From: Eledone cirrhosa
Taxonomy: Eukaryota
Reading direction: 5' to 3'
NCBI GenBank assembly: GCA_964016885.1
Contig: OZ024746.1
Span: 70,246,001-70,310,000 of the forward strand
DNA: 64,000 nucleotides
Below, piece by piece: positions 2,780 through 62,881 of this stretch. A program made the translations under genes and the position numbers. Numbering within the stretch: the first letter of the stretch is position 1; every line of letters starts with the position of its first letter. The notes under the pieces were generated by a model. It saw nothing but the letters and a program-made list of their open reading frames with translations, had not been told where the DNA came from and made no database searches.

Positions 2780-3197
2780 GTCTGGCGGGTTTTCTACGGC
2801 TGGATGCCCTTCCTAACACCAACCACGTTTACGGTGTGGACTGGGAGGTTTTTACTGTGTTACTTACACGGCCACATTACAGCGTGGACTGTGTGTTTTT
2901 TTGTCGTGACACCTACACGTCTGGCGGGTTTTCTACGGCTGGGTGCCCTTCCCAACACCAACCACGTTTACGGTGTGGACTGGGAGGTTTTTACTGTGTT
3001 ACTTACACGGCCACATTACAGCGTGGACTGTGTGTTTTTTTGTCGTGACACCTACACGTCTGGCGGGTTTTCTACGGCTGGATGCCCTTCCCAACACCAA
3101 CCACGTTTACGGTGTGGACTGGGAGGTTTTTACTGTGTTACTTACACGGCCACATTACAGCGTGGACTGTGTGTTTTTTGTCGTGACACCTACACGA
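2780..3197. repeat. 139-bp tandem repeat x3, derived from an interspersed repeat
   Basis: gtctggcgggttttctacggctgg at 2780, 2919 and 3058. Confidence 0.95.
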
Positions 3198-6588: not shown

Positions 6589-8278
6589 TACTGTTAAAAG
6601 ATTTATTAAAAGAGAAGATTATAATCACTTTATGTTTGTAGATATTTGATATGAACTATATTTTCTATTCAAAACATAGCATTTGGAAAGAAAATACCCA
6701 CATAAGGCTCTTTAACTGAACATTTTTTTAGATAGCCCATAAAATATTTTCAAACTAATGTTAATCAACTTTCCTATCACTCTTTCTGTTACCTATGTAA
6801 CATGGTCCAACAATTTGATGCTTCTGTAATTCCCCTCTCTGTCTCCTTTACCTTTGTAGCAAATGAAAATGATGTTGGTATGCCAGTCATTGGGGATAGC
6901 AGCTTCCAGTACTACCTGGTTTATTTACTATCTTAATGACTAGCCTGCGCCCTACTCAGCTGGATAGTTTAATCATCTCAACGACAATCCATGATGGATC
7001 AGTTGTACTCTCTATCATATCCTTAATCACCATATCTACCATCCTGTTGTCAACTTTAATGGTTGCTTCATCAGATTTGTTTATTTGAGATAAACCGTCA
7101 CTCTACACATTCAGCAACATCTTGCAGTAAGACTTCTATATATCTTTCTTTTCAGCATTAGTAACGCTAAGTGTAAAAATGTCAGCAGTTCTTTATCATG
7201 TAAGTAATTAGTATCATTTGGAACTTTCCAATAAAATTCAGCAGAGAATTTTATATTTAAATATTTATTTAATGATTAATATTAAACAATATGTAACATA
7301 GCTGGTTCTCTGAATAACAGATACAATCCATCCAACAGGCCTCCATACATTTGCCACCCACCGTATTTCATGCACAAACTTGGGCTAACTTGAGGCTATA
7401 GTAAGACTCCTCATGATAGTGAAGCAATTTTCTTAATCACTCAGCTATGCTTGTATCTACTGCAGTAATCTCAGAATATTTCTCAGGCTTTCTCCTTGTA
7501 GGTGTGAAAGTGAGGTATTTAGGGAATAGACAAACCACTAGAAACCATCCTGGTTTTATGATACTAAACTGCCCTTTTGGAAGTGTTCATATTTCTAATA
7601 AAAATTTCTATCATAATTTGATGTAAGAACTCTTTCTTTAGTTAATTATAAATGTTGGCTTAATAATGAGATATGTACTACTGCTAAATGGGCTAGTTAA
7701 TTATAACTATGTTATATGTATTGTGATGATAACTTTCACACCAGGAAATATATAATAAATATATAAAGTGAAGTTAGCAGTTTTTGTGTTTTACATGGAA
7801 AAAAAATAACTCTTCTATGTAATAATTGTTTTAGTTTCAACACACAGTCTCAGATCAAGTCACTTGCCAAACAAGTACAACTCCAAAAGTTAAGGTTAGG
7901 CATTTAGAAAAATAATTATTTCATCTTAAGAAGATATTTTTTTTCTTTCTTATTTAGAAAAGATAATTATTGATAAATAGGTAGAAAGAAGAGGAAAAAG
8001 ATGAAATCTTTCTCATATGAAAATGTTCATTGCCACAAAGTACTCAATGTCTGCTATCTAACATATTTGAAACAAAATAATAAATAAAAAACAACAAAAA
8101 AAAAACAATGTAAAAATGAAACAAATTTTGATTGTAGGGCAATGGGGGGTATCAAATCAAGGTAAAATATGTCAAAAAATATTCCAAAATAAAGATTATT
8201 TCTCAAAGAGACAATTGAAATCTTTTTTTTTTTTTTGAAACAACAATTTCAAAGAAGAAGAGATTAAAAAACTTATAA

Positions 8279-8689
8279 TCATGTCCTGCTTCTGTGTGGG
8301 ACGGGAATAAAAGAAGGCTCTGAAATAGTGAGAGCACTTTTGGGTGTGTAGATACCGACTTTAGCGGGAAATCTCTGGCCAGAAATATCAATTTCGTATT
8401 TAGCATTTTTGTCCAGAATATATTCATTAAGATTCTTCATGATAGATGGTTGATATTTGTCATCAAATTTAGAGACATAACCCAGACATAACATCTGCTC
8501 TAAAGTAAAACCATATCCACTTGATGTTGTTTCACCGACATACTCACCATTCCTATAGATTGGCTCTCCACCCCATGGCCAAATATCTGTATCAATATTG
8601 TGATCTTCAAGTAAGAAATGCACCAGTTTCTGTTTTACACCTTCCTTATGTTGTTGCAACAGAGCATCTTTTCCAATGAAGTCTCCTTT
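8279..8689 (-). CDS. PDPR: PDPR exon 17 (last coding exon)
   Basis: [13 protein letters not shown]...[26 protein letters not shown]...HRSRT*. Confidence 0.9.
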   Translation of the reverse strand, partial: KGDFIGKDALLQQHKEGVKQKLVHFLLEDHNIDTDIWPWGGEPIYRNGEYVGETTSSGYGFTLEQMLCLGYVSKFDDKYQPSIMKNLNEYILDKNAKYEIDISGQRFPAKVGIYTPKSALTISEPSFIPVPHRSRT

Positions 8690-10927
8690 CTGTGAAACAA
8701 AAAAGCAGCAAAACAATATCAGAACTAGAAGGTATAAGAAAAAAATTTTAAGTTCTCATCATCATATGTCCACTTTCCCTGGTTGGAAGGATTGCCACCA
8801 TCTGGGGAGTCAAGGAAGGGTTATCAAGGTCTAAAGAGTCACGTCTTACTTATGCATTCCATATTTGGCATGATTTTTACCACTGAATGCCCTTCCTAAT
8901 GTCAACCACTTTACAGAGTGTGTTGTGTGTATTTTATCATAACATCAGCACTACAACTTTACAGAGTGTGCTATGCGCATTTTATTTTCAATGAAATATA
9001 AATTAATTATTAAACTTAGAATAAGTACAAGGTATCCCTGCATGTTGTAAAGGGATGTATGGCCTTTACTATTGCTTTCTAACAATATAGTGACTAATTT
9101 ATCATCATCATCAACATTTCACATCAGTTTGTCTATACTGATATAGGTTAGACAGGTTGTCACAGCCAAAGTCAGTATTTAATTGGAGCTTCTGTCCTCA
9201 CAAGCAGGTTTCTGGCTAATGTCTGGCTTACATACATTCCAGTTTTAGCACGGTTTCTACAGCTGGTTACCCTTCTCATCGTTAACTAATTTACAAAGTG
9301 AATTGGGTGCATTTTATCATGGAACCAGAATTAGGGTGGTTGTCATGTCCTTGACACAATTAAGAGTCCTCCTGACCTTTTGTTTATATAAAAATATTTT
9401 TTAAAAACATGGTGTCATGACAAAAAGCACCCAGTCCACACTGTAAAGCAGTTTTGTAGGAGTCATGATAAAAAGTGCCCAGACCACATTGTAAAGTGGT
9501 CGTGTAGGTAACACGGCAAAAAGCACCCAGTACACACTGTAGATGTGGTTCACATTAGGAAGGGCAACCAGCCATAGAAACCAAGCCAAAATCAGTTCTG
9601 CATGAGCAAAACACAGTCCTCTGACCTGGTTTTCTTTCAACGGGACAGCACGTCCTACCCATGCTAGCGTGAAAAATGGACATTAAACAATAATGATGAT
9701 GATGGCAATGGAGGGATCCTGAGAAATAAGATTAATAGATAATTTCCTGATAAAAGGATACTGATCACATGTTAAAGTAGCATCATAATTTTTTGTAATA
9801 AACTTTTCTAAGATATGTTCCAAACACCATCTTAATGAGTAAGTTACTTATATTAATAAATCCCTCCAAATTTGTGTGTTTCATTAGAAAAGGTTGACAC
9901 ATCAGCTTCAGCAGCTATAGTTTATAGACTTGATATAATAATACTGTTAATATGAACAATGGTCTCAAATTTAGGCACAGGTCAACAATTTGAGTGGAGG
10001 GGAAAGTCAATTATATCAACCACAGTACTTGACTAGTATTATGTATGCGCTAGATTGGTAGAAGGTCGGACGCCATGCTTTGCAGCATAGAGTTACGGCC
10101 CTTTGGAGTCTGATTTCCAAATCCCACCGAGGTCAACTTTGCCTTTCATCCTTACAGGGTCGATAAAATAAAGTACCAGTAATGCACTGGGGTAATTGCT
10201 GGCCTTGTGCCTAATGTAGAAACAATTCTATCTTATTGACATTGAAAAGGTGAAAAGCAAACTTGACTTCAGTGGGATTTGAACTCTGAATGTAAAGAGC
10301 TGCAACTAAAAGCTGCTAAGTATTTTCTCTGATGTTCTAATGATTCTACCATTGTTAATATGAATAATGCTCACGCCATGCTTTCCAGCATAGTTACGTC
10401 CCTTTACGATCTGAGTTCAAATCCCGCCGAGGTTGACTTTGCCTTTCATCCTTACGGGGTCGATAAAATAAAGTACCAGTAATGCACTGGGGTAATTGCT
10501 GGCCTTGTGCCTAAAGTAGAAACAAATATTCTAGTTAACTTACATTAAACTTGACACGGAATTCTCGACCACATTCAAAAGGTGTAGTAATGGGAGTTAA
10601 ATCAACTCCCCAGCTTGCAAAAAATTTCTCTACTCTTAATTCTTTCATGCAATTGAAACCAACATTACGAATTCCATAGTCAACACCTGCACGTATTAAT
10701 GTATCATAAACATGGAGGGCATACTGAAAAGAGAAAAACAACCCAATTAAAATAAACTATATTCACTGCTCTACAATACATACAATACATTACATATTAA
10801 TAGATAACTCATTGATTTATTGAGTGAATAATTATTATTTTGTTTCTTCATCAAATAGCAATAAAGTTATGTTTGTGGTTCAGACAACATATGTTAAATG
10901 ATGATGATGATGGTGATGATACATATA

Positions 10928-13900: not shown

Positions 13901-16726
13901 GGCAGACTGAAATAGTAAAAAGTCCAGGTGATTAAACATTTAAAAACTCCTACTAATCACTGAATTTATTAGAATATTGGCAGCTCAATATTAAAAGGCT
14001 CAGGAAAATAACTGAGGGGTTATATGGAAAATTAAAAATAAAACTAAAATGAACTACAACAAAAAATTTGACTCTAAAATGGTAGAGATTGAATGATGAC
14101 AAACACTAAGTAAATATGTTGAAAAATCAGAGACAATTGAGCAGAAACAATATCAGGTTTGAGAGGATTCTTTAGTTTGGCCAAGCATGTGACAACCTCT
14201 CTAGTGCTGATGCAATGATAAAATGCACCTAGTACATTGTGTAAGGTAATTGTGCTAGTACCACAAAAAATGCACCTAATACATTCTGTAAAGTGCCATG
14301 AAAAAAGTGCACCCAGTACTCCCTGTAAGATGATATTATGAAAGGCAGCCAAATATAGAAATTATGTCAAATATAGAACATTTGAGCATGATGATGTCAC
14401 TTCAACCCATCTGGTCTTGGACCATGACAAGCCATCAAAAACATCCATTGTGGAAAGCACATGTAAAATGATGATGATGATGATATATCATGATCCTTTT
14501 GCATCTCCTCTACCATGTGACTAGACTGGTTACATTGCAAATTGATAAATAAAAATAATTGAAACACATAATTAGTGATCCTCATTAGAAACAGGGTCAC
14601 AAGAGGGTAAATATAAATATAATGTAGAATTTACCTTTACTTCAATTTTAGAGAATGAAGACATGTCTATGATGCTGACTCTTTCTTTACAAGCCCAGTA
14701 CTCATCTTTGACAATATTAAACCAATCTGGTTTACTGAATGTTCCCTGTGACATTCGTTGTTCAACAAATTCATCTTGAAATGATAAAATTAGGAAAACG
14801 GTGAAGAAAAATATGAGTCATAAGGTAGAAAGATCAGTCATACAGAAAGAAATATCAGTCATAAAGTAGAAAGATCAGCCATATAATAGGGAGAAAAATC
14901 AGTCATAAGATAGAAAAAGATCAATCGTAAGGTAGAAAGATCTTATTAATTTATACGTATGTCTTGTAATGAACTAATTAAACCATGGAATGGATCTTTG
15001 TTAGTTTTGTCAATGAGTGTTCTAGTCGTTTGATCAAGAAAATAGTGTGAATGGCTGAACATTCTACAGGCAGTGTATGCTTAGCCCTTTAGCATTTACA
15101 TTACTCTATATATACTATTGTATTTTTGTGGTAATGGCTTTATTTTATATAATTATCACACATAATATTGAATCTACGAGATTTTGATGTTATTTATTTT
15201 GAGAATAATACCTTAACATCAGTATGAGCAGCCAGTTACAGCCAGTTTGAACAGAAAGAGGTGAGAAAATTCTAGCCAGATACAGGCGGTTTAAATGCTA
15301 AAAGGTTAATGTACCTCTCAGGAAGATTCAACATGACACAGTGTGTGACAAGGCTGGCACTTTGAATTATAGGTTCAGTCCATCCAAAAGGCTGCCAAAT
15401 ATATTGTCAACTCAGCTTCATTCACAAGGCATCAGTTGACCTGAGGCTATGATAAATGACACTAGCCCAAGTATCACACAGTGGGATCCAGCCTGGGACC
15501 TAATGATTGTAAAGTGAACTTCTTAACCTTTCAGCCATGCTGCAACTACAATTAAACCATAATAGAAAGTAGAAAGAACAGATAGAATTTAAAACACTCA
15601 CCATCGGCATTAGGAACAAACCACATTGGTGTTTCATAGGCATTTGTCTCTCCAAATACAGCTCCTGCTACTTCAAGCCTGGTATGTAATGAAGATGTTC
15701 TCAACTTACGAGACGACCCATATTCTTCAGTTGCATAACCAATAGCATAAAGATGTCCTGAAAAATGGTAAATATTCATTTATTAATATACCACAATTCG
15801 TCCAACCCATGCAAGCACGAAAAACCCCACCTAAAATGATGAAGATGATGTATAGAATCATAGCAAAACAAATAATTATAAATTCATATAACCTTGCTGA
15901 CTTCAGTGATTTCCTGGGACACTGCTTTGAAAGGGATTTATTTAACCATACTGATCAAAGTACCTTTCTTTTATTTTTTATTTCATAGATCCCTATTTGT
16001 TGAACTGCAAAGTTGTGGGACATATAAACTAACAAGAACATAAATGTGGATACACACACAAACACACACACACACACACATCATCATCACCATTTAAAGT
16101 CCATTTTTCATGCGAGCATAGGTTAGATGAGTTGTCCTATTGTGGGACAAGTCAAATCAGGTGACCATATCTTGCACATACATAAGTTTCTGGCTTGGAT
16201 GCCCTTCCTAATACCAACCACATTTACATAAAGAAGAAGTAGTAGTTTATATACAGAATATAAAAAGTATTATGTGTTCAAACTTTGCTCCACCAATTTG
16301 GCAGGTTTTAATTATTTCAATTAAAGATCATCATCATCATCAAAAACTACTAACCAACTGCTTCTTTAACTCTATCCCGCAGGAACCTTCTGTTATTGTG
16401 TAAGTCGACAAATCGACTGACATCAACAGGCCATAGATTCTTACTGGTGGTACCGTCTACAATCCAATCAGCAACCTCCTTACCGACACCTCCGGATCCA
16501 GCAATACCAGAGGAATTCATGCCAGCAGCTACAAAATAATTATCCACCTGAAATGGTAAAGTCAAGAATATTTCACTTTATAGAATACTAGCAGAATGGC
16601 CCGGCATTGCTCGGGATTTGCTCTAGAGTTCTTATATATTTGATATATATTTATCCTTATTGAGCCTCGTGAAATAAATACGTTTGTTTATATTTTGTTA
16701 TTGTGTATGCAAAAATATCTGTACAC

Positions 16727-16772
<46 letters not shown>

Positions 16773-19700
16773 GAGAGAATTGGGAGTGTGTAACACTCCA
16801 CTTATCAAATAGGCAGTATATGGTTAGCTCAATGTCAGAGGACAGAGCCGTAATACAATTAACAACAAAGAGCGCTTAGAACATAGGTATATCTTTAATT
16901 GCTAACAGTGTTTCGTCCACACTAGAAGTGGGACTCTTCAGAGCATAAAGAGTAAATACATAGTATACAAGCATTGACAAAGCCAAAACAGAAGAATATA
17001 TGTGGGGATACCATAAGTTGGGGGGAGTTTAAAGAGTAAAGTAAAAGGAGTAAAATAAGAAAAGAGTAAAATAAAAATAAAAATAAAAATAAAAATAAAA
17101 ATAAAAATAAAAATAAAAATAAAAATAAAAATAAAAAATAAGAAATGTTATCACTCACAGTTGGGCAGGGTTCCGTTAACATACAGCTACATACAAGTAT
17201 ACGTATAAGCATGAGCACCCGCATGCACCTACACACAAGCACCCGTATGCAACACATACAGTATACACTAATACAAATAACATATCATAGACGGATGGGC
17301 ACAAGTTAAGAGATAGAGATAGATAAAAAATAGATAAGAGGTAGATAAAAAATAGATAAAAAATAGATAAAAAATAGATCAAAAAGTAGATAAGAAATAG
17401 ATAAAAAATAGATAAAAGATAAAAAATAAAAAATAAAATAAAATAAAATAAAATATACACCAGAAGATAAATAAAACAATACACCAAAAAAAAGTGGAGT
17501 AAAATATACACCATAAAGGAAGGTGTGGGTAAAGATAAGACTGGCAAATGCATAAGCTATCAAGCTATGTTCAACAAGTAATATACGTACAATATATAAA
17601 ATATACAAAAATATATACGAAAATATATATAAAAAATATATATAAAAAACATATATAAAAGAGACGTATATACAAGGATATATATATACATATATACACA
17701 TATCAGTCCAAGTAATGCATATCTATAAAAATGTAACTAGGGGTAAAAAGATGTAATAACAGTAATCAAGATGGTAATTATTAGGGCATGTAATAATAAT
17801 ATTATTATAGAAATCCTAGGGTGACACTAGTGTTGACTCATGGTGATATATGGAATATATCAGGAGCACACGAACGCCTTAGGCGTTGCAGTTAGCCGCA
17901 GTTCAACAATAGAGTGTTCGAATGAGATTTTTTATGAGATTTTTTATGAGATTTTATGAGATTTTTTATGAGATTTTATGAGATTTTATGAGATTTTATG
18001 AGATTTTTTATGAGCTTTGGGGTAATACTAGTGAAGTCATTAGGTGGTTTTCTACGGATTGTAAGCGTGATTCGCTTAGGTTTATCCAATTTGATATTGA
18101 TGCTTATTATACATCTATATCTCCTATCATCCTCAATAAGGCCCTTATCCTAGCCATGCAGAGAGGGGTCATTACACGGCCACAGATAGATATCGTTCTC
18201 GCTGCACGTAAAACCATCATTATGTTTGAGGATAATTTATGGACGAGAAAAAACACACCGGATAATTTTGACATTACTATGGGGTCAAGTGATTCTGCTC
18301 AGGTCACCGACTTAGTTGGGCTCTACCTCCTTACTGAACTACATAGTAACTTCCCATTCCTTAGGGGTGGGTTGTACCATGATGATGCCCTACTCTCCAT
18401 AGATGCTAGCAAGTATAATATAGTGCGCATTAGGAAAAAGCTGTATAAATTCTTTAAAACCTTCAATCTGTCCATTACTATGGATATAAATGATAGGACT
18501 GTCAACTTCCTTGATGTTACATTGGACTTAGGTAACCATACGTACACACCGTACCATAAGCCTAATGAATTGCTGACTTATGTGAATACTAACTCCAACC
18601 ACCCTAAGTCGGTCATCAGTGGTATATTGAAGGGGGTCTCTAACAGAATAAGTTCACTCTCACATAGCGAAGAGGCGTTTAACTCGCAGGCTGATTATTA
18701 TAATGATGCCTTAGCTAGATCCGGCTTTAGGGACAAATTACATTATGCCCAGGGAAATAATAGTCCAAATAGTAGCTCTACCAGTGTTGTTATAACACAT
18801 AATATGTCCATTGGTAATAGAGGTGTTTCGAACATGAGGGTTTTGAATGCCGGTAAAATGCACCAACAGGGTACCAATGGACTAAGTAACAGTAACAGTA
18901 ACGGTAGGCCTCTTAGCTCCCCGCATAGATTAGGTGAACATAGTAACCTTAGCAATGGAATTAATAATAATAATAATGGTAATAATAATGGTAATAATAA
19001 TAATAGTGAAAATAAAAAGAATAGAAGAAGATTGAATACATATTTTAACCCCCCATTTAACTCCGAAGTGGCTACGAATATTCCTAGGGCCTTCTTCTCT
19101 GTGTTAGAAAGGAACTTCCCTCCTGGTAATAGGTACCATTCTATCCTCAATAAGAATGTGGTTAAACTCTCGTATTCTACAACCCAAAATCTGGCCTCTC
19201 ATCTAGCCAATACCAATAATAAGAAAATTAAGGAAGGCCTCGACACCTTACGCCTAGGGGAAAACATTGGAGTCGACAGAGGTAGCCTGAACACCCGTGG
19301 TCAGCAAGCTGGTGATCATTTAGATAATAGCATCACCAGAAATTGTAACTGTAGAAGGGCTTCGGGCTGCCCCCTGAATGGTTTCTGCCTTACTAGAAAC
19401 ATAGTTTATGCGTGTGATGTGGTAACTACTGCGTCCACTAAAACTTATATTGGATCAACTTCCACCCCTTTTAAAACCAGATTTAACTCTCACCAGTGTA
19501 CATTTAGACATAATAAACTGAAGAATTCTACCTCCTTGGCAGCGCACGTCCACAATTTAAAAAATGCACGAACACAGTACACCCTCACTTGGTGGCAAGT
19601 TGCTAAATCCCATCCATATACTCCTCATAATAGAGTATGTAACCTATGCCTTACGGAATCCCACTATTATATTTGCCAAGTGCTCCCTACTAAATAGAAA

Positions 19701-22700
19701 GTCAGAAATATTTTCCTCTTGCCCCCACCAGATATTAAGCTCTTTCTTTTACTTTAAGCCTATTAGCTAGCACTTTCAGAATTCTCCAGTTGGGTAATCT
19801 AGTGTAATTGTCTCCTATTGTTTGTCTTGTTTGTATATGTGTCTGTGTGTATATGTATGCCTGCATGTGAATATGGAATTTGGATATCGAGGTGTATACG
19901 TGAGTTGGTGTATATGTTAATAAGCACCCTCGTTCGGTACAGTGGATGTGACCCTTCCATACTTGCCCAGCCACCGTGTGTGTGTTTGTGCATTGGTGGG
20001 TCTATCCCAACGTGTATTGTATGGATTTGTACCTCTGTATGCTCATGAGTTGTGATGTAATACATCTATGTAGAGTGTGTACTGCGTTATAAGATGCACA
20101 ATTGATTATATTTAACCTGCCCCTCGCATTTTATCTTATTTTAGTTTATTTAAATTACCTTGTTGACTCGGAGTGAACCAATGGGCCTGTGCCTTTTAGT
20201 TTTTAGTTTTGCCCCTCGCATTTTATCTTATTTTAGTTTATTTAAATTACCTTGTTGACTCGGAGTGAACCAATGGGCCTGTGCCTTTTAGTTTTTAGTT
20301 TTGCCCCTCGCATTTTATCTTATTTTAGTTTATTTAAATTACCTTGTTGACTCGGAGTGAACCAATGGGCCTGTGCCTTTTAGTTTTTAGTTTTGCCCCT
20401 CGCATTTTATCTTATTTTAGTTTATTTAAATTACCTTGTTGACTTGGAGTGAACCAATGGGCCTGTGCCTTTTAGTTTTTAGTTTTGCCCCTCGCATTTT
20501 ATCTTATTTTAGTTTATTTAAATTACCTTGTTGACTCGGAGTGAACCAATGGGCCTGTGCCTTTTAGTTTTTAGTTTTGCCCCTCGCATTTTATCTTATT
20601 TTAGTTTATTTAAATTACCTTGTTGACTCGGAGTGAACCAATGGGCCTGTGCCTTTTAGTTTTTAGTTTTGCCCCTCGCATTTTATCTTATTTTAGTTTA
20701 TTTAAATTACCTTGTTGACTCGGAGTGAACCAATGGGCCTGTGCCTTTTAGTTTTTAGTTTTGCCCCTCGCATTTTATCTTATTTTAGTTTATTTAAATT
20801 ACCTTGTTGACTCGGAGTGAACCAATGGGCCTGTGCCTTTTAGTTTTTAGTTTTGCCCCTCGCATTTTATCTTATTTTAGTTTATTTAAATTACCTTGTT
20901 GACTCGGAGTGAACCAATGGGCCTGTGCCTTTTAGTTTTTAGTTTTGCCCCTCGCATTTTATCTTATTTTAGTTTATTTAAATTACCTTGTTGACTCGGA
21001 GTGAACCAATGGGCCTGTGCCTTTTAGTTTTTAGTTTTGCCCCTTGCATTTTATCTTATTTTAGTTTATTTAAATTACCTTGTTGACTCGGAGTGAACCA
21101 ATGGGCCTGTGCCTTTTAGTTTTTAGTTTTGCCCCTCGCATTTTATCTTATTTTAGTTTATTTAAATTACCTTGTTGACTCGGAGTGAACCAATGGGCCT
21201 GTGCCTTTTAGTTTTTAGTTTTTCCCCTCGCATTTTATCTTATTTTAGTTTATTTAAATTACCTTGTTGACTCGGAGTGAACCAATGGGCCTGTGCCTTT
21301 TAGTTTTTAGTTTTGCCCCTCGCATTTTATCTTATTTTAGTTTATTTAAATTACCTTGTTGACTCGGAGTGAACCAATGGGCCTGTGCCTTTTAGTTTTT
21401 AGTTTTGCCCCTCGCATTTTATCTTATTTTAGTTTATTTAAATTACCTTGTTGACTCGGAGTGAACCAATGGGCCTGTGCCCATATGGGACGGAGATTTA
21501 GCCAGTCACTGTGAGCTGACCTGTGCCATCTCGCCGTGGGCAGTAGATATGGAGTACATGTATGTGTTACCCTCCTATTCTGCGGTTCACAGTCTACATG
21601 CTGACTTTGGGGTGTTTCTGCCTGGTGTTGTATTTTTGGCATAGTTGGCCTTCCATAGATTGACGCTCTGTGTTATTCTCCCAAGAATAACGTCTTGGCC
21701 CCGATAGCCTTCCGTATTTATTAACGGTTTGTTTATACTTGAATCTGGTGACTACACGTGTGAATACGCATCTCATCATAAGGTTTTATTTTGAATATTA
21801 ATCGTGATTACTCTGGCTAATTTACTGTGAAACTACATTATCTGCGACCAGTGAGAGCAACTGTTATGGGTTTTTAACTTTTGTTAGCTGGGTAAGATAT
21901 TTTGTGTAATATATCCGCGTAGATTTGGGTGTCCGGTGCGGTGTGTGTGTGTGTGTGTATGTATATATTTATGTGTATATACGTGTATGTGTATATATAT
22001 ATATATATATACTGTCTCTGTATATATGTGTATGTATACTGTCTCTGTATATACATGTTTGTGTGTATGTGTGTATGTATAAGTATACATATACTGTCTC
22101 TGGACTAACCCTAATGTTGCGTACATTCTTGCGATGCCGGATTGTTGCTCAATGTTGTGATTTTGTGGTTATCGGCTTTGGAAGCTATTTGTTATGCACG
22201 TTGTTGAGTTTTCTTATATTAAATGGTATGCATAATAACCTGCTTCACCTGACTGTGTTTTACCACCTGCACTTGCCTGCTTCTGCTCACTAATATGCGC
22301 CTCAATTATTTGCCTCTTGATGTTCGTGCTGCTGTATATGAATTTGCCTGCAACCTTCCCAGCATATGCTCCTGCTTGTGATACGGATACACCTTGTTAA
22401 CCAATTAATTCTTGCCTGAGTGCTCAACTCTATGAATGCACATCTGTGTATTGAACTTTGGAGTGTGAACTTTTTGGGATTGCCCAACCGCTCAACTCTA
22501 TGAATGCACACCTGTGGATTGAACTTTGGAATGTGAACTTTTGGGACTGTCCAACCTGGGATGTTTCCATTGCATTGTAATGGTCCACTCAATCTAGGGC
22601 GGACATAGCATCTGTTCATAAAAAATCTCATTCGAACACTCTATTGTTGAACTGCGGCTAACTGCAACACCTAAGGCGTTCGTGTGCTCCTGATATATTC

Positions 22701-23657
22701 CATATATCACCATGAGTCAACACTAGTGTCACCCTAGGATTTCTATAATAATATTATTATTACATGCCCTAATAATTACCATCTTGATTACCCTTATTAC
22801 ATCTTTTTACCCCCAGTTACATTTTTATAGATATGCATTACTTGGACTGATATGTGTATATATGTATATATATATATATCCTTGTATATACGTCTCTTTT
22901 ATATATGTTTTTTATATATATTTTTTATATATATTTTCGTATATATTTTTGTATATTTTATATATTGTACGTATATCACTTGTTGAACATAGCTTGATAG
23001 CTTATGCATTTGCCAGTCTTATCTTTACCCACACCTTCCTTTATGGTGTATATTTTACTCCACTTTTTTTTGGTGTATTGTTTTATTTATCTTCTGGTGT
23101 ATATTTTACTTTACTTTATTTTATTTTATTTTTTATTTTTTATTTTTTATCTTTTATCTATTTTTTATCTATTTCTTATCTACTTTTTGATCTATTTTTT
23201 TATCTATTTTTTATCTACCTCTTATCTATTTTTTATCTAACTCTATCTCTTAACTTGTGCCCATCCGTCTATGATATGTTATTTGTATTAGTGTATACTG
23301 TATGTGTTGCATACGGGTGCTTGTGTGTAGGTGCATGCGGGTGCTCATGCTTATACGTATACTTGTATGTAGCTGTATTTTAACGGAACCCTGCCCAACT
23401 GTGAGTGATAACATTTCTTATTTTTCATTTTTATTTTTATTTTTATTTTACTCTTTTCTTATTTTACTCCTTTTACTTTACTCTTTAAACTCCTCCCAAC
23501 TTATGGTATCCCCACATATATTCTTCTGTTTTGGCTTTGTCAATGCTTGTATACTATGTATTTACTCTTTATGCTCTGAAGAGTCCCACTTCTAGTGTGG
23601 ACGAAACACTGTTAGCAATTAAAGATATACCTATGTTCTAAGCGCTCTTTGTTGTTA

Positions 23658-23693
<36 letters not shown>

Positions 23694-32600: not shown

Positions 32601-35600
32601 TGGTGGTGATGATGGTGTTGGTGGTGGTGATGATGATAGTGGTGATGATGATAGTGGTTATGGTGATGGTGGTAGTGGTAATGGTGATAATAGATATTTA
32701 AAAGGTTGGGTATCAAGAAAGGCTTGGTTACCTCGAGATCTTCATGACGTATTTCTGGACATTTATCTTTGACTTCTTTAGCAGTAATAATATGAGCTTC
32801 TGGACCATTTTGTCTGGGAGCAAATAACAAACAAAGCATTTAGCTTCAATATCCTCATCAACATCATTTTATATCCAGTTACTGGCTGACTTGGGTTGGA
32901 TAGGTCGTCACATTCTGAGATTCAACATGTTAGATAACCGTGTCTTGCTCTAATGTTCATTTTGGTATAGTTTCTACAACTGGATACCCTTCCTAATGTC
33001 AACCATTTTACAGAATCTCCTGGAAGCATTTGATTATGACACCAGCACTATCACTTTATTGTGTGAACTGGAAGCATTTTATTGTGACACCAGCACTACC
33101 ACTTTACAGTATCACCTGGCAGGATTTTATTGTGACACCAGCACTACCACTTTACAGTATCTTCCGGAAGCATTTTATTGTGACAGCAGCACTACCACTT
33201 TATAGTGTGGTCTAGATGCATTTTATCATGACACCAGCAGTATCACTTTACAGAGTAGATTAGGTGCATTTTATCATGATACCTCTACTACCACTTTACA
33301 GTATGGACTAGGTGTGTTTTATCATGAGACCAGTACTACCACTTTATAGAGTGAACTGGTTGTATTTTATTGTGGCACCAGCACTACTATTTTACAGCAT
33401 GGACCGGGTGTATTTTATTGACACCAGCATTTCTATTTTATAGTAAGGACTGGGTGTATCTTATTGTGACACCAGCATTACCACTTTATAAAGTGGACTG
33501 GTTGTATTTTATTGTGACACCAGCATTACCATTTTACAGCATAGACTGGGTATATCTTATTGTAACACCAATACTACAACTTTATAGTGTGAACTAGGTG
33601 CATTTTATTGCGACACCAGAACTACCATTTTACAGCATGGACTGGTAGTACTTTATTGTTACACCAGTATTACTACTTTGTAAAATGAACTGGATGCATT
33701 TTATTGTGACACTAATACTACCAATTTAGAGTGTGAACCAGGTGTATTTTATCATGGCACCAGTACTACCATTTAACAGCATGGATTGGATGTACTTTAT
33801 CATGGCACCGACATTATTAGCTTCTTCAAGTAAATAAATAACTTCCAAATGAATAAATAAAATAGAAAAAATATAAATGACCCACTGTAACCACTAGGTC
33901 ATGTACCTTCACTGAGACAGTAATATAATATTGGTGTAAACCTTTATAAACTAATACAGAAGTTATCTGGTTTGAAGAGGTCAATTTACAATATGTAAGT
34001 TACATCTGAGTCAGAAGAGAGATTAAATACAACTTAAATAAGAGTTAACTTCTTTGATAAAAAGATAACTTGAAACCACTCCTGGTCCTAAGATTCAAAG
34101 CTGTTCATTTTTAAAATGTGTATATTTATCTAATAAAGCCCTCTATCATCATTTTATGTAAGAACATTCATTAAGTTATGTTTAAACACTAACTTAATCT
34201 TGATAAAGATTAAGTTGGTGTTTAAACATAACTTAATGAATGTTATAACCAAATTCACAAAGTATAAAGAAAAATTTGTTGTAACAAAAAATTCTTTATA
34301 ATGAGATTGACCGAAACAAATCGAGCGTTTGTTTATTACCTCAGGGATTAAAAAAAAATATGTTATAATGGTATTCGTTATAACAGAATTTTACCTGTAT
34401 TAATAAATTCCTCTAAATTCTTGATTATTTAAAAAAATCTTTGAAAAGTATAGTCAATGTTTTTCATTAGAAACACAGTATCAACAGAGTTAGTATCAAC
34501 AAGAAAGACTACTAATGAAAAGGAATAAAATACAATTAGTACCCACCCCACTATACACCAATAAAATAAAAAAGAATGAACAAATGTTTTTATAATTACT
34601 TGGCTCTAGCCTCTGCTCGTTGGAAGTAGATGAGTCGGTCCTTAGAGCGAGCTAGTTGCAGGCTCCCACACTGCTTCCAACCTGGAAGAGAGAAAGATAA
34701 AGGAAGAGAGACTGATAACGGGAGAGAAAGGGTGAAATTTGAGCTGGTTGAAGGCTACCACATTATTTCCAACCTGAGAAAAATTGAACTTCCCCACTTG
34801 CTTCAGTGTAACTCCGCTCACATGCAGAGTGCACTGGGCAAGTTTTATGGAGAGGATGAGTGTCTCAGTTTTTGCGGCACTGATTTTCATTTCTGCTGTG
34901 CAGCACTTGGCAGGAAATCTATCCAGTACATGACAGAGTTAAGTAGTACCATGTCATCTGAAAATTCCAGTTGACTGATCCTACATCAGTCAGTCTTGAT
35001 ACCACTTCCAACAGAAATCTGCCGGGCATTTCAATCTAAGAGGCTTAACCAGGAGATTCCTCTATAATTAAAGCAATCTCTCATGTCTCTCTTTTTGGAA
35101 ATTGGAATTATAACACCCAATGTTTTGGTGCCTCTCCCAAAATTCAGGTCACCCAACACACACAAGTCATTTAAAGTATACCTTCTATTTAATGCTTTTA
35201 AAATCTCTGGCCAAATATCATCCTCCCCAAAAGCCTTGTCACATTTGAGAATTTTAATAGCTGTGGTGACCTTAGCCTTCAGTATTTGTGCCAATACTTA
35301 GCTTATGTCATGAATCTTGAGTATGAATCTTGGGTAATGCCTAAAAGAATACAATCATGGATACAAGCATTCAAAATGGCATCCCTCTGAAGAGTCTTTG
35401 GAGTAATGTTACTGAATAAGATGAGTAGTTCAAAGATCAGGGAATCACTCAAGATAGAGTTGTTATTTCTCCAATCAAGAGATCATAGCTCCAGTACTAC
35501 AAACATGTGGTTAGAATGTCTAAAAAAAGAATTGCTGGGCAGATTTTATGAGCAAAATGGTTGGATAACATCCACGAGCTTAGTTGGTCACATTGCTCCA

Positions 35601-38600: not shown

Positions 38601-41600
38601 TTTTCAGAAAGATGTGAAAAACTGGTACTCCAGACAGAGTAAAAAGATAATGTTTGTGTATGTGGAGGGAGCAGGCATGTCAAGGCATGTCCCCTCTCAT
38701 CCCCCCCCCCCCCCCCCATCCTGTCAAATCCTTCCACATTTGACACCTGACCATGTTATACACCCCAGCCCTATCCATAGGGTAGAGCCAGCTCTTCAGT
38801 TGAGTCAATGACAACAACCTCTTTAGTGTCAGTGCTATGATGAATGCACCCAGTATACCTGATAGGGTGGTTGGTAATGGGAAGGGCACCGTGCTGTAAA
38901 AACCATGTCAAAAAGGGTTGAGGAGACACATTTGTTGTGCCATGGGTATGAAAACCTCTCTAGCGTTGGTGATGAGCACACCTAGTACACTCTGTAAAGT
39001 GGTTTGTGATAGAAAGGGCATCCAGCCATAGAAAACTTGCCAAACAAAGGGCCAGGAGGATTCTTCAGCTGTACCATAGACACAACATTCCTAATATTGG
39101 TAATCTATACAATAAACACACCTAGTGCACTCTGTAAAGTGGTTGGTGATAGGAAGGACATCCAGTTGCAGAAAATTTGCCATAGAACAAGTTGTAGACA
39201 TGACAACCTCCCTAGTGCTGGTGATAAACATGATAAACACACCCAATACACATTGTAAAGTACACTCATATTCACAGCCACACAAATATACTGATTAATA
39301 TATAAATAATTTGTGTTGATTTTTTTCATGTATTTGTTTGACTGAGAAACATTTTCACACAACCATATGAATACATTGGTACAGAGATCTTGCCAACAAC
39401 ATCCCATGTGTTGTCTTTGGAGTTATATACTTCTATCAGATCAGAATAAAGGTTTTCTTTAGATCCCCTACACCGGGCCCCAAATAAATAGATTTTCTCA
39501 TCAAGCACAGCCAAGCTAACAAAGTCCCGAGCACATCTCATTTCAGGGAGAATATCCCAGTTACCAGTCAGTGGTGTGTAACGAAACACACCCTCAAGCC
39601 TCACCACATATATCTGAGAGTTCAATACCACAGCACTGAGGCACATGTCATTTGCAGGAAGACCATTTTTTAAGATACTACAAGTATTTGTTGTTGTATC
39701 ATAACATTGAACAGTATTTGTCACGACCTCATCATTATTTTTTCCCCCAAAGAGATAGATGTATTTCCCATAGGCAACATAACCCATATTTTCTACAGCA
39801 AACAATAGTTTCCCCATGCTTGTCCATTTATTTGAAGAAGTGTCCCACATTTCTACAGTGTTTAGAACACATTCCTCATCAAATCCTCCCAAGACATAAA
39901 TGTTGTTATCAACGACAGCAATTGCATGTCGTCTTTGAGCTTGTAACATATTGTTTCCTCTTATCCAAGAATGGAATGTGAGATCATATTTCCATAATTC
40001 TGGACTTCTCAGACCACCAGATACATAAAACTCATTACCAACCACTGCAGCAGCATACTCATTTCCTTTTTTAAAAGGAAGTGGTTTCAAAGAAACAAAT
40101 TCTTTTGTATCTGGTCTGTAAAACTCGACATCACTACTGAGACCATCAGCTACTCTGCCACCAAGGAGTACAGCAACTTCCGTGTAAGAGAAAGCATAGC
40201 GAGGTGTAATCTGATAAGCTTGTCGTGAAGAAACAGTATGGAATGAGATTGCATCTTCTATCATTTCCTGACCCTTTTCACAAGACAAATGATTGGATTT
40301 GATGACATAATCCAGCAAGTAGCTCTGTCCAATCAATGGAAACTTCACACATGTCATCATTTGGTAACGGAAAGATTTTCTGTGTTCAATGTCATATTCA
40401 TGCGTTTCTTCCATTCCAGAAGAAAACATTGATTTGAAGTAATAAGAGCCTGCTGCCAAGATGGCTCGATGGCAAGGAAATTTCTTGTCTTCAAGAATTA
40501 TAGTAACATCAGTGTAATTAGCATTCATACAAAATGATTCAATATTAGCTCTAAGAGAATCTGAATGTTGAGAGCTGAAATAGAACATTCCTTGTGAGAA
40601 AGTGTCTTCCTCTACACTGCTGTTCTGGTTTGCCATGATTGAATAACTGTTATTATGGAACTATGTCAGTTATTAGAGATATCAATAAGAGGAATTATTT
40701 TAAGTTTGTTCACCAAGTCGCTAAGTGATATAATATCACATCATTTGGTCCTATACATAAACTGTAGGAAGAACATTCAGTTGTAGAAAACCTTCCAAAT
40801 ATAGACTTGGGAAGACTCTTCAGCTATGTCAAAGACATGACATCTTCCCTAGTGTTGATGCCATGATAAAATGCACTCGGTAGAGCATGAGTTTGTATGT
40901 CAGGCTCCTAGGCCTACCTTGAATACTAACCAGTCTGTGATGGTGTATGCAACCCTTGCTAGCAGGGAACACAGACATTAAATAATGATGATGTCTTGTT
41001 ATTTATCAGCATTATTGATAAATAAGATCTCTATGTATCTGGTTTAGAATAGGCCCACCATAATGTTGCATCCCTTGAAAGGCAACTGAAAGGGTTTGTT
41101 GCTAGAATGAGCATCTGACAGTAGTGTCTAGAATTGAAATACCACAAGAGAAATTTTTTAAAACCAATTGCCTGGATAATTTCAGTTGGTAGAGTATTTT
41201 CAACTCACTATCTTATATATATGTGGCCCCTGTGAAGCCAGAAATAGTCCTCACTCATCTTCTATTCACACACAACCACATTTGCCTTGAAAGAACAGAG
41301 TAGAGAGGACTGGGTAGTCTTGATTAAGGCAACCCTTCTAGTTCTAATGCAGAGAAGAGGGAACAACACACAAACTCTCAATTGCTGGAACAAAAAAAAA
41401 GGTAATATGTTTTAACAAGTGAAGGCATGTAGCCTAATGGTTGGGCTCATAATCATATAGTCATGGGTTTCATTGCTGTGCACTGTGTGGTGCATTTTGT
41501 TCTTGAGCAAGATGTTTCACTTTACATTTCTCCAGTCAACTCAACTGAAAAAATGAGTACCAACAACAACTAAGGTTAAACTCTGCAATGGGCAGGTGTC

Positions 41601-49470: not shown

Positions 49471-62881
<13,411 letters not shown>

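Follow-up and report, generated by a model that had tools for sequence, protein, structure and literature searches.

What kind of event leaves an insertion that runs into a (TA)n tract at both ends, carries a second copy of its own 3′ region in inverted orientation at its 5′ end, and shows an extra segment on one side only? The question is raised by an element at positions 16770–23664 of a stretch of 64,000 nucleotides (nt) from Eledone cirrhosa (contig OZ024746.1, positions 70,246,001 to 70,310,000), referred to here in its full length as the window. By its domain order and motifs, the element is a dead, folded-back, and broken copy of a Hydra-type Penelope retrotransposon, not a Naiad. Comparison with its relatives shows that fold-backs of this family end at two fixed sites, each beside a conserved predicted hairpin, and suggests that a single RNA served as template for a pair of reverse transcriptase (RT) units, one at each hairpin, which were primed from the two cut (TA)n ends; the probability of this reading is put at about 0.62.

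Organization of the locus

The two arms of the element could be aligned with 1024 matches, 9 substitutions, and 68 gap columns, the gap columns falling within microsatellite tracts. The arms share one common allele that was seen in 0 of 19 sibling segments, and 8 of the 9 differences between them are private. The left arm alone is extended, by 83 nt, and the open reading frame (ORF) is joined to it by a 73-nt reiterated GA(T)nATGA run, which consists of extra copies derived from an ATGA...ATGA repeat at the inner end of the arm. In terms of the two end sites described below, the inverted arm of this copy ends at site 2 and the main copy at site 1. Individual loci elsewhere are cited by L numbers. 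The features are as follows.

16729–16769, no strand: left (TA)n target tract (repeat scan and family end calls)
16770–16852, reverse strand: tail, from start site 1 to start site 2, present in the inverted arm only; its outer end is site 2, the exact base being ambiguous within the TA run
16826–16849, reverse strand: hairpin 1, GGCUC-UGUC-loop-GACA-UU-GAGCU, a predicted RNA structure just 3′ of start site 1 (hairpin model R1 and pairing counts)
16853–17937, reverse strand: inverted arm, a copy of the element's 3′ region (arm alignment)
16898–16946, reverse strand: type I hammerhead-like motif of the left arm, the identical mirror of 23571–23619
17938–18010, forward strand: inversion junction, seven extra GA(T4/T6)ATGA units from the arm's inner end, with a TGAG link to the ORF
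18011–19770, forward strand: 5′-truncated remnant of a Hydra-clade ORF, with RT core, thumb, N-rich insert, linker, and GIY-YIG
19344–19370, forward strand: CxCx5C linker (CNCRRASGC), diagnostic of the Hydra clade
19401–19770, forward strand: C-terminal GIY-YIG endonuclease (EN) without CCHH, with CxxC and CxH (the CxH past the frameshift)
19771–23664, forward strand: 3′ non-coding region, 3.9 kb here and ~2.6 kb in siblings
20118–21481, forward strand: private 92-bp array of 14.8 copies, in which a native segment of 76 nt, with TGCC at its borders, is joined to a 16-nt insert
22616–23664, forward strand: direct 3′ arm, which stops at start site 1, without tail or hairpin
23571–23619, forward strand: type I hammerhead-like motif of the right arm (Rfam match below gathering score; core conserved in siblings)
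23662–23688, no strand: right (TA)n target tract (repeat scan)

All that the original prediction had described in the sequence was confirmed. The arm alignment bears out an inverted 3′-terminal repeat of ~1.05 kb; both ends abut (TA)n; the left-only segment, given as ~84 nt, measures 83; the frame with RT, CxCx5C, and GIY-YIG lies at 17982–19697; a hammerhead core occurs in each arm; and the internal 92-bp array is present. The classification as a Penelope-like element is likewise supported.

Two end sites and one site per end

A search of the 3.0-Gb genome with the RT part scored 150 matches of 42,135 candidates, with identities of at least 92% in 102, 86% in one, and 68–72% in 47. The ~5-kb family of the window element is, to judge from its copies, young. 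Natural units measure 4954 and 5381 nt, with an ORF of ~830 amino acids (aa) that holds an N-rich insert and a normal 3′ region of ~2.6 kb. Units also occur in tandem at a spacing of ~5.0–5.1 kb, and at a unit boundary the hammerhead is followed by a UA-rich stretch and hairpin 1, then by the tail, and finally by a second UA-rich stretch and hairpin 2 ahead of the start codon. Multi-copy tandem arrays of whole units and near-full-length head-to-head inversions with near-identical units were seen at L043+L107, L085+L108+L109, L049+L100, L066+L102, and L112+L113; these structures are compatible with a multimeric or circular RNA template.

Ends of the family fall at two discrete positions 92 nt apart, each 5′ of a hairpin. 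Tandem siblings read through both positions into the next unit, so that the ends are internal start sites and not RNA 3′ ends, as the original prediction had taken them to be. Two other features that it had proposed to look for in further copies were found: 150 of 156 family end calls (a few loci being counted twice) enter TA-rich sequence, and inversion points vary from <50 nt to several kb.

How the two sites are combined within one insertion was tallied for fold-backs with both outer ends on a defined site. In the discovery set, read by eye, all 43 fold-backs had site 1 at one end and site 2 at the other, with the arm at site 1 and the main copy at site 2 in 20, the reverse in 15, and 8 not oriented; flank comparison revealed no duplicates among the 43. 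This tally leaves out L032, L093, L130, L142, and L096, whose ends are irregular, broken, or in the same direction (L142 was later resolved as L227), and an apparent second end at L158 is low-complexity sequence. The pairing was then predicted beforehand for 26 further stretches, which contained nine new fold-backs, and eight of the nine conformed. Combined, 51 of 52 fold-backs pair site 1 with site 2, either way round (p ~1e-14 against independent 50:50 use). The same pairing was found in 5/5 fold-backs of other families in this genome (L205, L206, and L208, and short ones in L170 and L184) and in two short nested fold-backs within L213. The end search used one 181-nt query and scored 40 of 648 candidates.

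Not every insertion shows both sites. In 31 copies no arm is present; their ends fall on site 1 in 14 cases, on site 2 in 16, and on neither in 1, and their 5′ joins give no evidence of a short inverted remnant; the idea that every insertion uses both sites was rejected on these copies. Two further observations concern single ends. L032 (oriented ends 2663 and 7829) is flanked by a direct repeat of ~15 nt, a visible target-site duplication in a target that is not a microsatellite. At the 3′ end of L249 and at L227:6852–7685, two site-1 ends in the same direction are split by TA runs and look as if copying began, halted, and began again at site 1.

A predicted hairpin beside each site

Insertion ends lie 1 to 15 nt (mostly 2 to 8) 5′ of either hairpin, which has the form GCUC, upper stem, loop, UU, and GAGC. 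Among 15 hairpins of the site-1 type, 93% of cells were paired and 11 two-sided changes were counted, a level reached in 0 of 500 shuffles. Model R1 matches the window at 16823–16858, such sequence having been part of its training alignment.

The hairpin was also sought outside the family. Among 17 loci of distant relatives (32–40% protein identity), the pattern was found 14 times as against 0.9 in shuffles, and R1 matched 6 of the 17 at E <0.01. L210, L211, and L215 (34–35% protein identity) each have two hairpins 62–65 nt apart between the hammerhead and the start codon, and their element ends fall directly before one hairpin or the other. Furthermore, 27 candidates were collected from 20 hand-picked loci without demanding an upper stem (4 of the 27 being chance or misparsed); 68 of 81 upper-stem cells pair in these as against 42.5 when shuffled, with 0/5000 shuffles as high, and the UU bulge is present in 19 of the 27. 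L211 has GCAC/GUGC in place of GCUC/GAGC, a compensatory change. By eye, the hairpin is present in three of six published Hydra consensi (Hydra-2_Amil, Hydra-2_Ajap, and twice in Hydra-1_Ajap), is ambiguous in two, and lies beyond the point where the remaining one stops. The 17 loci of distant relatives, L209–L225, are Hydra-clade loci within bacterial genome assemblies and evidently represent host contamination.

Searches for a known counterpart were negative. No Rfam family was found for the hairpin in five distant loci, where one L211 stretch gave miRNA models below gathering score, and none of 119 pattern matches in viral contigs could be confirmed. Neither a twin hairpin nor a counted one-site-per-end rule is described in the full-text literature searched, a body with subscription papers largely outside it; the supplementary figures S1–S2 of PMC11167929, which give RNA folds at start sites, may bear on novelty. 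The words "hairpin" and "stem-loop" are not in the main text of PMC8557442. At roughly even odds, the Hydra clade as a whole would carry this undescribed pair of RNA hairpins as landing and template-boundary elements, with a pair of proteins on one RNA priming from both cut (TA)n ends. Such a landing and boundary role would be similar to that of telomerase RNA.

Formation of fold-backs

Under the one-RNA reading, the GIY-YIG domain would cut both strands of a TA tract and each hairpin would place one RT unit, with the UA-rich stretch before it pairing with the (TA)n primer. Both cDNAs would be made from one and the same 3′ region, with the product of site 2 either displacing that of site 1 or coming after it, and their two 3′ ends would join by microhomology or templated slippage, which would account for the variable inversion points. 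Where one arm is left unextended, the insertion would look simple. In the window copy, a site-2 cDNA of ~1.17 kb would have slipped seven times on the ATGA...ATGA repeat and joined a long site-1 cDNA inside the RT gene. One RNA with two hairpins and two RT units is the simplest account of both the exclusivity of the sites and the identity of the arms. The original prediction had included priming at the two target ends and a join inside the element, and this part of it gains strong support from the 51-of-52 rule.

Arms of the same insertion differ at no more than 3 positions per 185 nt in 22 of 26 pairs, 13 of which are identical, whereas 14% of all pairs among 179 ends are that similar. At the eight loci that show an inverted arm, an upstream direct repeat, and a downstream end, all three agree with 0–3 differences (8/8). 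The comparison leaves out L077 and L088, with arms under the 185-nt window of comparison, and L043, L083, and L128. Most of the 43 junctions link unrelated positions and are not palindromes; L159 (a palindrome), L037, and L049 link near-identical reference positions. Reiterated junctions were considered as a typical outcome and rejected, as many rounds occur only in the window copy among the 43, with L047 and L128 carrying single templated inserts; slippage at the same spot as the window junction was seen at L227. The reiteration in the window resembles realignment of the telomerase type, and host polymerase theta could equally have made it.

Several points weigh against the one-RNA reading. 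First, the rule is not absolute: L247 is a genuine fold-back with site 2 at both ends and distinct flanks, L032 has site 2 at one end but stops 35 nt before site 1 at the other, and the main L213 element has site 1 at both ends, its flank duplicated along with it. Second, the 43 junctions favor the reading with 18 overlaps of 1–8 nt, 3 blunt joins, and 7 joins with 1–4 extra nt, but these are raw counts, and the other 15 have gaps of at least 8 nt that are mostly unresolved low-complexity sequence. Third, the minimum-free-energy z-scores of the hairpins (–0.55 and –1.12) are not significant, related sequences make the shuffle tests look stronger than they are, and the search pattern included the lower stem. 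Fourth, for the related Anolis system, PMC11167929 found neither a difference in start sites between the strands nor primer–template homology, and it left the ends of single events unpaired. Finally, identical arms would also be expected from two RNAs of one source locus.

The last point belongs to the nearest competitor, a rather unlikely one, in which the same hairpin start sites are used on two RNAs within a single asymmetric complex, with one RNA copied from each end of the target. Two RNAs would avoid strand displacement on a single template, would still yield identical arms if they came from one source locus, and would make L247 easier to explain; furthermore, 4 of the 26 arm pairs differ at 4–5 of 185 nt, one of them via misalignment. 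However, none of the 26 arm pairs mixes subfamilies, though subfamilies differ at a median of 33 of 185 nt, and an extra reason would be needed for the exclusivity seen in 51 of 52 fold-backs.

An improbable alternative places the origin at the DNA stage, where the element would use its own endonuclease to resolve a self-primed fold-back cDNA at two TA-rich sites next to the motifs. EN-mediated resolution has been proposed in general terms (PMC8557442), and so has self-priming (PMC3846280). Both sites are TA-rich like the genomic target, a staggered cut would likewise leave one end at each site, recognition by the D. virilis EN depended on the tail (a result cited in PMC11167929), and the few junctions at near-identical positions named above would fit. 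On the other hand, most of the 43 junctions join unrelated positions, the G–U pairs of the hairpins work on the sense strand only, and RT starts of the Anolis protein in vitro coincide with the tail boundaries (PMC11167929).

That the locus is an assembly chimera, or a DNA transposon whose terminal inverted repeats (TIRs) form the arms around a captured RT gene, is very improbable: no listed contig piece crosses the junction, yet the arms differ at 9 positions plus indels, the flanks are unique and different, the arm sequence is what all siblings carry as their ordinary 3′ region, TIRs would have a fixed length in all copies whereas the arms here range from <50 nt to several kb and are often absent, and contig depth within the junction (position 17940; 12.3/8.2/9 in three runs of one sample, possibly the assembly source) is like that of unique flank (12.7/4.6/8). 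The depth check spanned 16400–21900, which takes in the left arm and its junction, and the family-wide pattern is a stronger argument against a chimera than contig depth. The distinction from a TIR transposon, drawn in the original prediction, thus holds, since arm length is variable and many family copies have no arm.

Clade assignment

The window ORF spans 571 aa from stop to stop and holds RT motifs, the CNCRRASGC linker, and IVY...YIG. It is short of ~250 N-terminal residues, has YHDD (18375–18386) in place of the YRDD found in 119/119 aligned relatives, and has lost 2 nt at 19663, which shifts the frame; the copy is dead because of the truncation, the altered motif, and the frameshift. 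A Pfam search of this ORF matched no family, and a sequence search of the PDB gave no match below E 0.46. Full-length siblings (L037, L041, L049, and others, with frames of 826–844 aa) carry the Hydra motif set with RWR replacing RWK.

The 119 aligned proteins are one sibling and 118 of 120 listed homologues. CxCx5C is present in 115 of them, DKT in 111, and DKG in none, and the RWK column has K in 82 and R in 33; DKT itself was seen in full-length siblings and has been truncated away in the window copy. The domain order is that of a single ORF with the RT followed by a C-terminal GIY-YIG EN, which has no CCHH, one Cys between IVY and YIG, and CNLC...E...N...CPH around the conserved E and N. 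Judged by eye, the protein is collinear with that of the octopus family Hydra-1_Obim, and the only species-named match among the 120 listed homologues is a hypothetical protein of Argonauta hians (43%).

By domain order and motifs, the element belongs to the Hydra clade, which is described as having a C-terminal GIY-YIG, a CxCx5C linker, DKT, RWK, no CCHH, CxxC plus CxH, a hammerhead, and (TA)n targets (PMC8557442). Apart from RWR for RWK, the family agrees in all of these, down to the layout of the hammerhead. The octopus Hydra family, 2507 bp long, has already been catalogued (PMC8557442). The combination of CCHH and DKG that would indicate Neptune, Nematis, or Poseidon is absent.

The Naiad assignment made in the original prediction is practically untenable. 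It had taken CxCx5C as the mark of Naiads, whereas this motif is diagnostic of the Hydra clade with its C-terminal EN (PMC8557442). Naiads combine an N-terminal GIY-YIG EN, CxC, DKA, CCHH, and IFD, and lack a canonical hammerhead (PMC8557442), none of which fits the window family. The domain order refutes the Naiad reading: the EN is C-terminal, and full-length siblings start at the RT N-terminus, with no GIY-YIG or CxC domain upstream. The family has DKT instead of DKA, an EN that lacks the CCHH and CX2-5CxxC zinc-finger motifs, and a hammerhead core. The (TA)n bias, tandem units, inverted 5′ copies, and one-sided tail are shared with Naiads (PMC8557442). The original prediction had itself allowed that an RT outside the Naiads would overturn it, and on domain order and motifs the RT lies outside them.

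Relation to known systems

In LINE-1 twin priming, two primers from two target ends act on one RNA and the products meet at an internal microhomology join. The inverted part there comes from upstream and is not duplicated, unlike the window family, in which the two cDNAs would start at different fixed sites and cover one and the same 3′ region.

Among Penelope-like elements, a mechanistic likeness is seen in PAc, the Poseidon element of Anolis carolinensis, whose protein, a predicted dimer, cuts and extends both strands at AT-rich targets in vitro and starts at two internal sites flanking a tail, with a hammerhead upstream (PMC11167929). PAc belongs to another clade, its tail is 30–40 nt, and both its starts are within a single AC-rich stem loop of the ORF (PMC11167929), whereas the window family has its starts ahead of the ORF, in UA-rich sequence, with a separate hairpin copy following each. 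Penelope elements of Adineta vaga share inverted pseudo-long terminal repeats, a tail on one inverted end, N-rich RT–EN inserts, and microhomology joins, and were explained by self-priming at palindromes (PMC3846280); junctions of the window family are mostly not palindromic. Compared to the 27 listed Hydra families of 1.1–3.0 kb (PMC8557442), units here reach ~5.0–5.4 kb, with a ~2.6-kb 3′ region, an ORF of ~830 aa with an N-rich insert, RWR, and a tail of ~92 nt. The usual Hydra length of <3 kb is descriptive, not diagnostic, and the family doubles the known range of the clade.

Inverted arms, one-sided tails, hammerheads, TA bias, and N-rich inserts are all in print, and the window locus is one dead copy with known Penelope features. 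The family is a new and unusually long member of the Hydra clade. The origin of tandem and inverted Penelope structures has been named an open question (PMC8557442), and the steps after initiation were left unvalidated (PMC11167929). To this the family adds a quantitative end rule and, at either start site, a short RNA element that shows covariation and is conserved among distant animal hosts. If true, the hairpin-pair rule alone would explain why there is a tail and why it is on one side only, why arms are inverted, and why microsatellites are preferred, and the pair would define a minimal cis-element for double-ended RNA-templated insertion. Penelope RTs are sister to telomerase, and a structured boundary element beside a primer-pairing stretch would therefore bear on the origin of telomerase-style templating.

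The 92-bp array

The internal array has a period of 92, 99% identity, and 3 singleton substitutions. The 16-nt insert in its unit resembles the TTTTAGTTT motif within the unit and lies between TGCC microhomologies. A 24-mer across the array junction has 14 genome matches, 14/14 of them at the window locus, and siblings of the same subfamily have a single copy of the 76-nt segment. The array was thus rejected as a family trait, and the expectation that other copies would share it failed. No comparable long clonal array was found inside the other fetched copies, where the one hit was a 37-bp repeat of 2.5 copies at the L159 junction. Because of this private array, the 3′ region measures 3.9 kb here; the original prediction had called so long a region atypical, but apart from the array it is ~2.6 kb of ordinary family sequence. 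The copy number was taken from the assembly, contig depth in the array interior being available at 21184–21367 in two runs.

These data indicate that the array junction arose once and was then amplified. A younger age of the array relative to the insertion was considered and rejected, as substitutions (3/1364 in the array as against 8/2066, p = 0.54) make the two ages indistinguishable; the array would be a one-off local amplification at or soon after insertion. Its period equals the distance of 92 between the hairpins, which is probably a coincidence, as other families have spacings of 62–99 nt and no array.

Hammerheads and other observations

Each arm contains the core CUGAAGA/GAAA, which is conserved across siblings. 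Rfam gave no match at gathering score in the window; the Hammerhead_1 match at 23571–23619 scored 18.4 bits (E 0.06) under a gathering score of 34. The stem-III and cleavage layout (aca-c-tgt-t) agrees with the published table of Hydra hammerheads. Each arm holds a type I hammerhead-like motif, with a putative capacity for cleavage.

Related motifs were seen elsewhere. Tandem arrays of ~312 bp with a type I hammerhead core per unit, retrozyme-like in form, lie at L075:1393–2505 (oriented) and in L177 near 9186–9720. Short elements with a hammerhead plus a hairpin and no ORF nearby were found at L184 near 8255–8334, L191, L206 near 2060, L144:1701–1735, and L106:221–255; some are tiny fold-backs with site 1 and site 2 ends, and they may represent solo ends, or non-autonomous elements derived from other Hydra families. 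More hammerhead-bearing, TA-targeting families are nested in flanks (L176, L182, L187, L191, L192, and L195; L178, L183, L186, and L204).

The window contains further arrays at 2780–3196 (139 bp, 3 copies), 33026–33800 (48 bp, 16 copies), and 54711–55395 (88 bp, 7.8 copies). A weak match to the hairpin model at 40544–40585 on the reverse strand (17.5 bits, E 0.009) may be the end of another element or a chance match.

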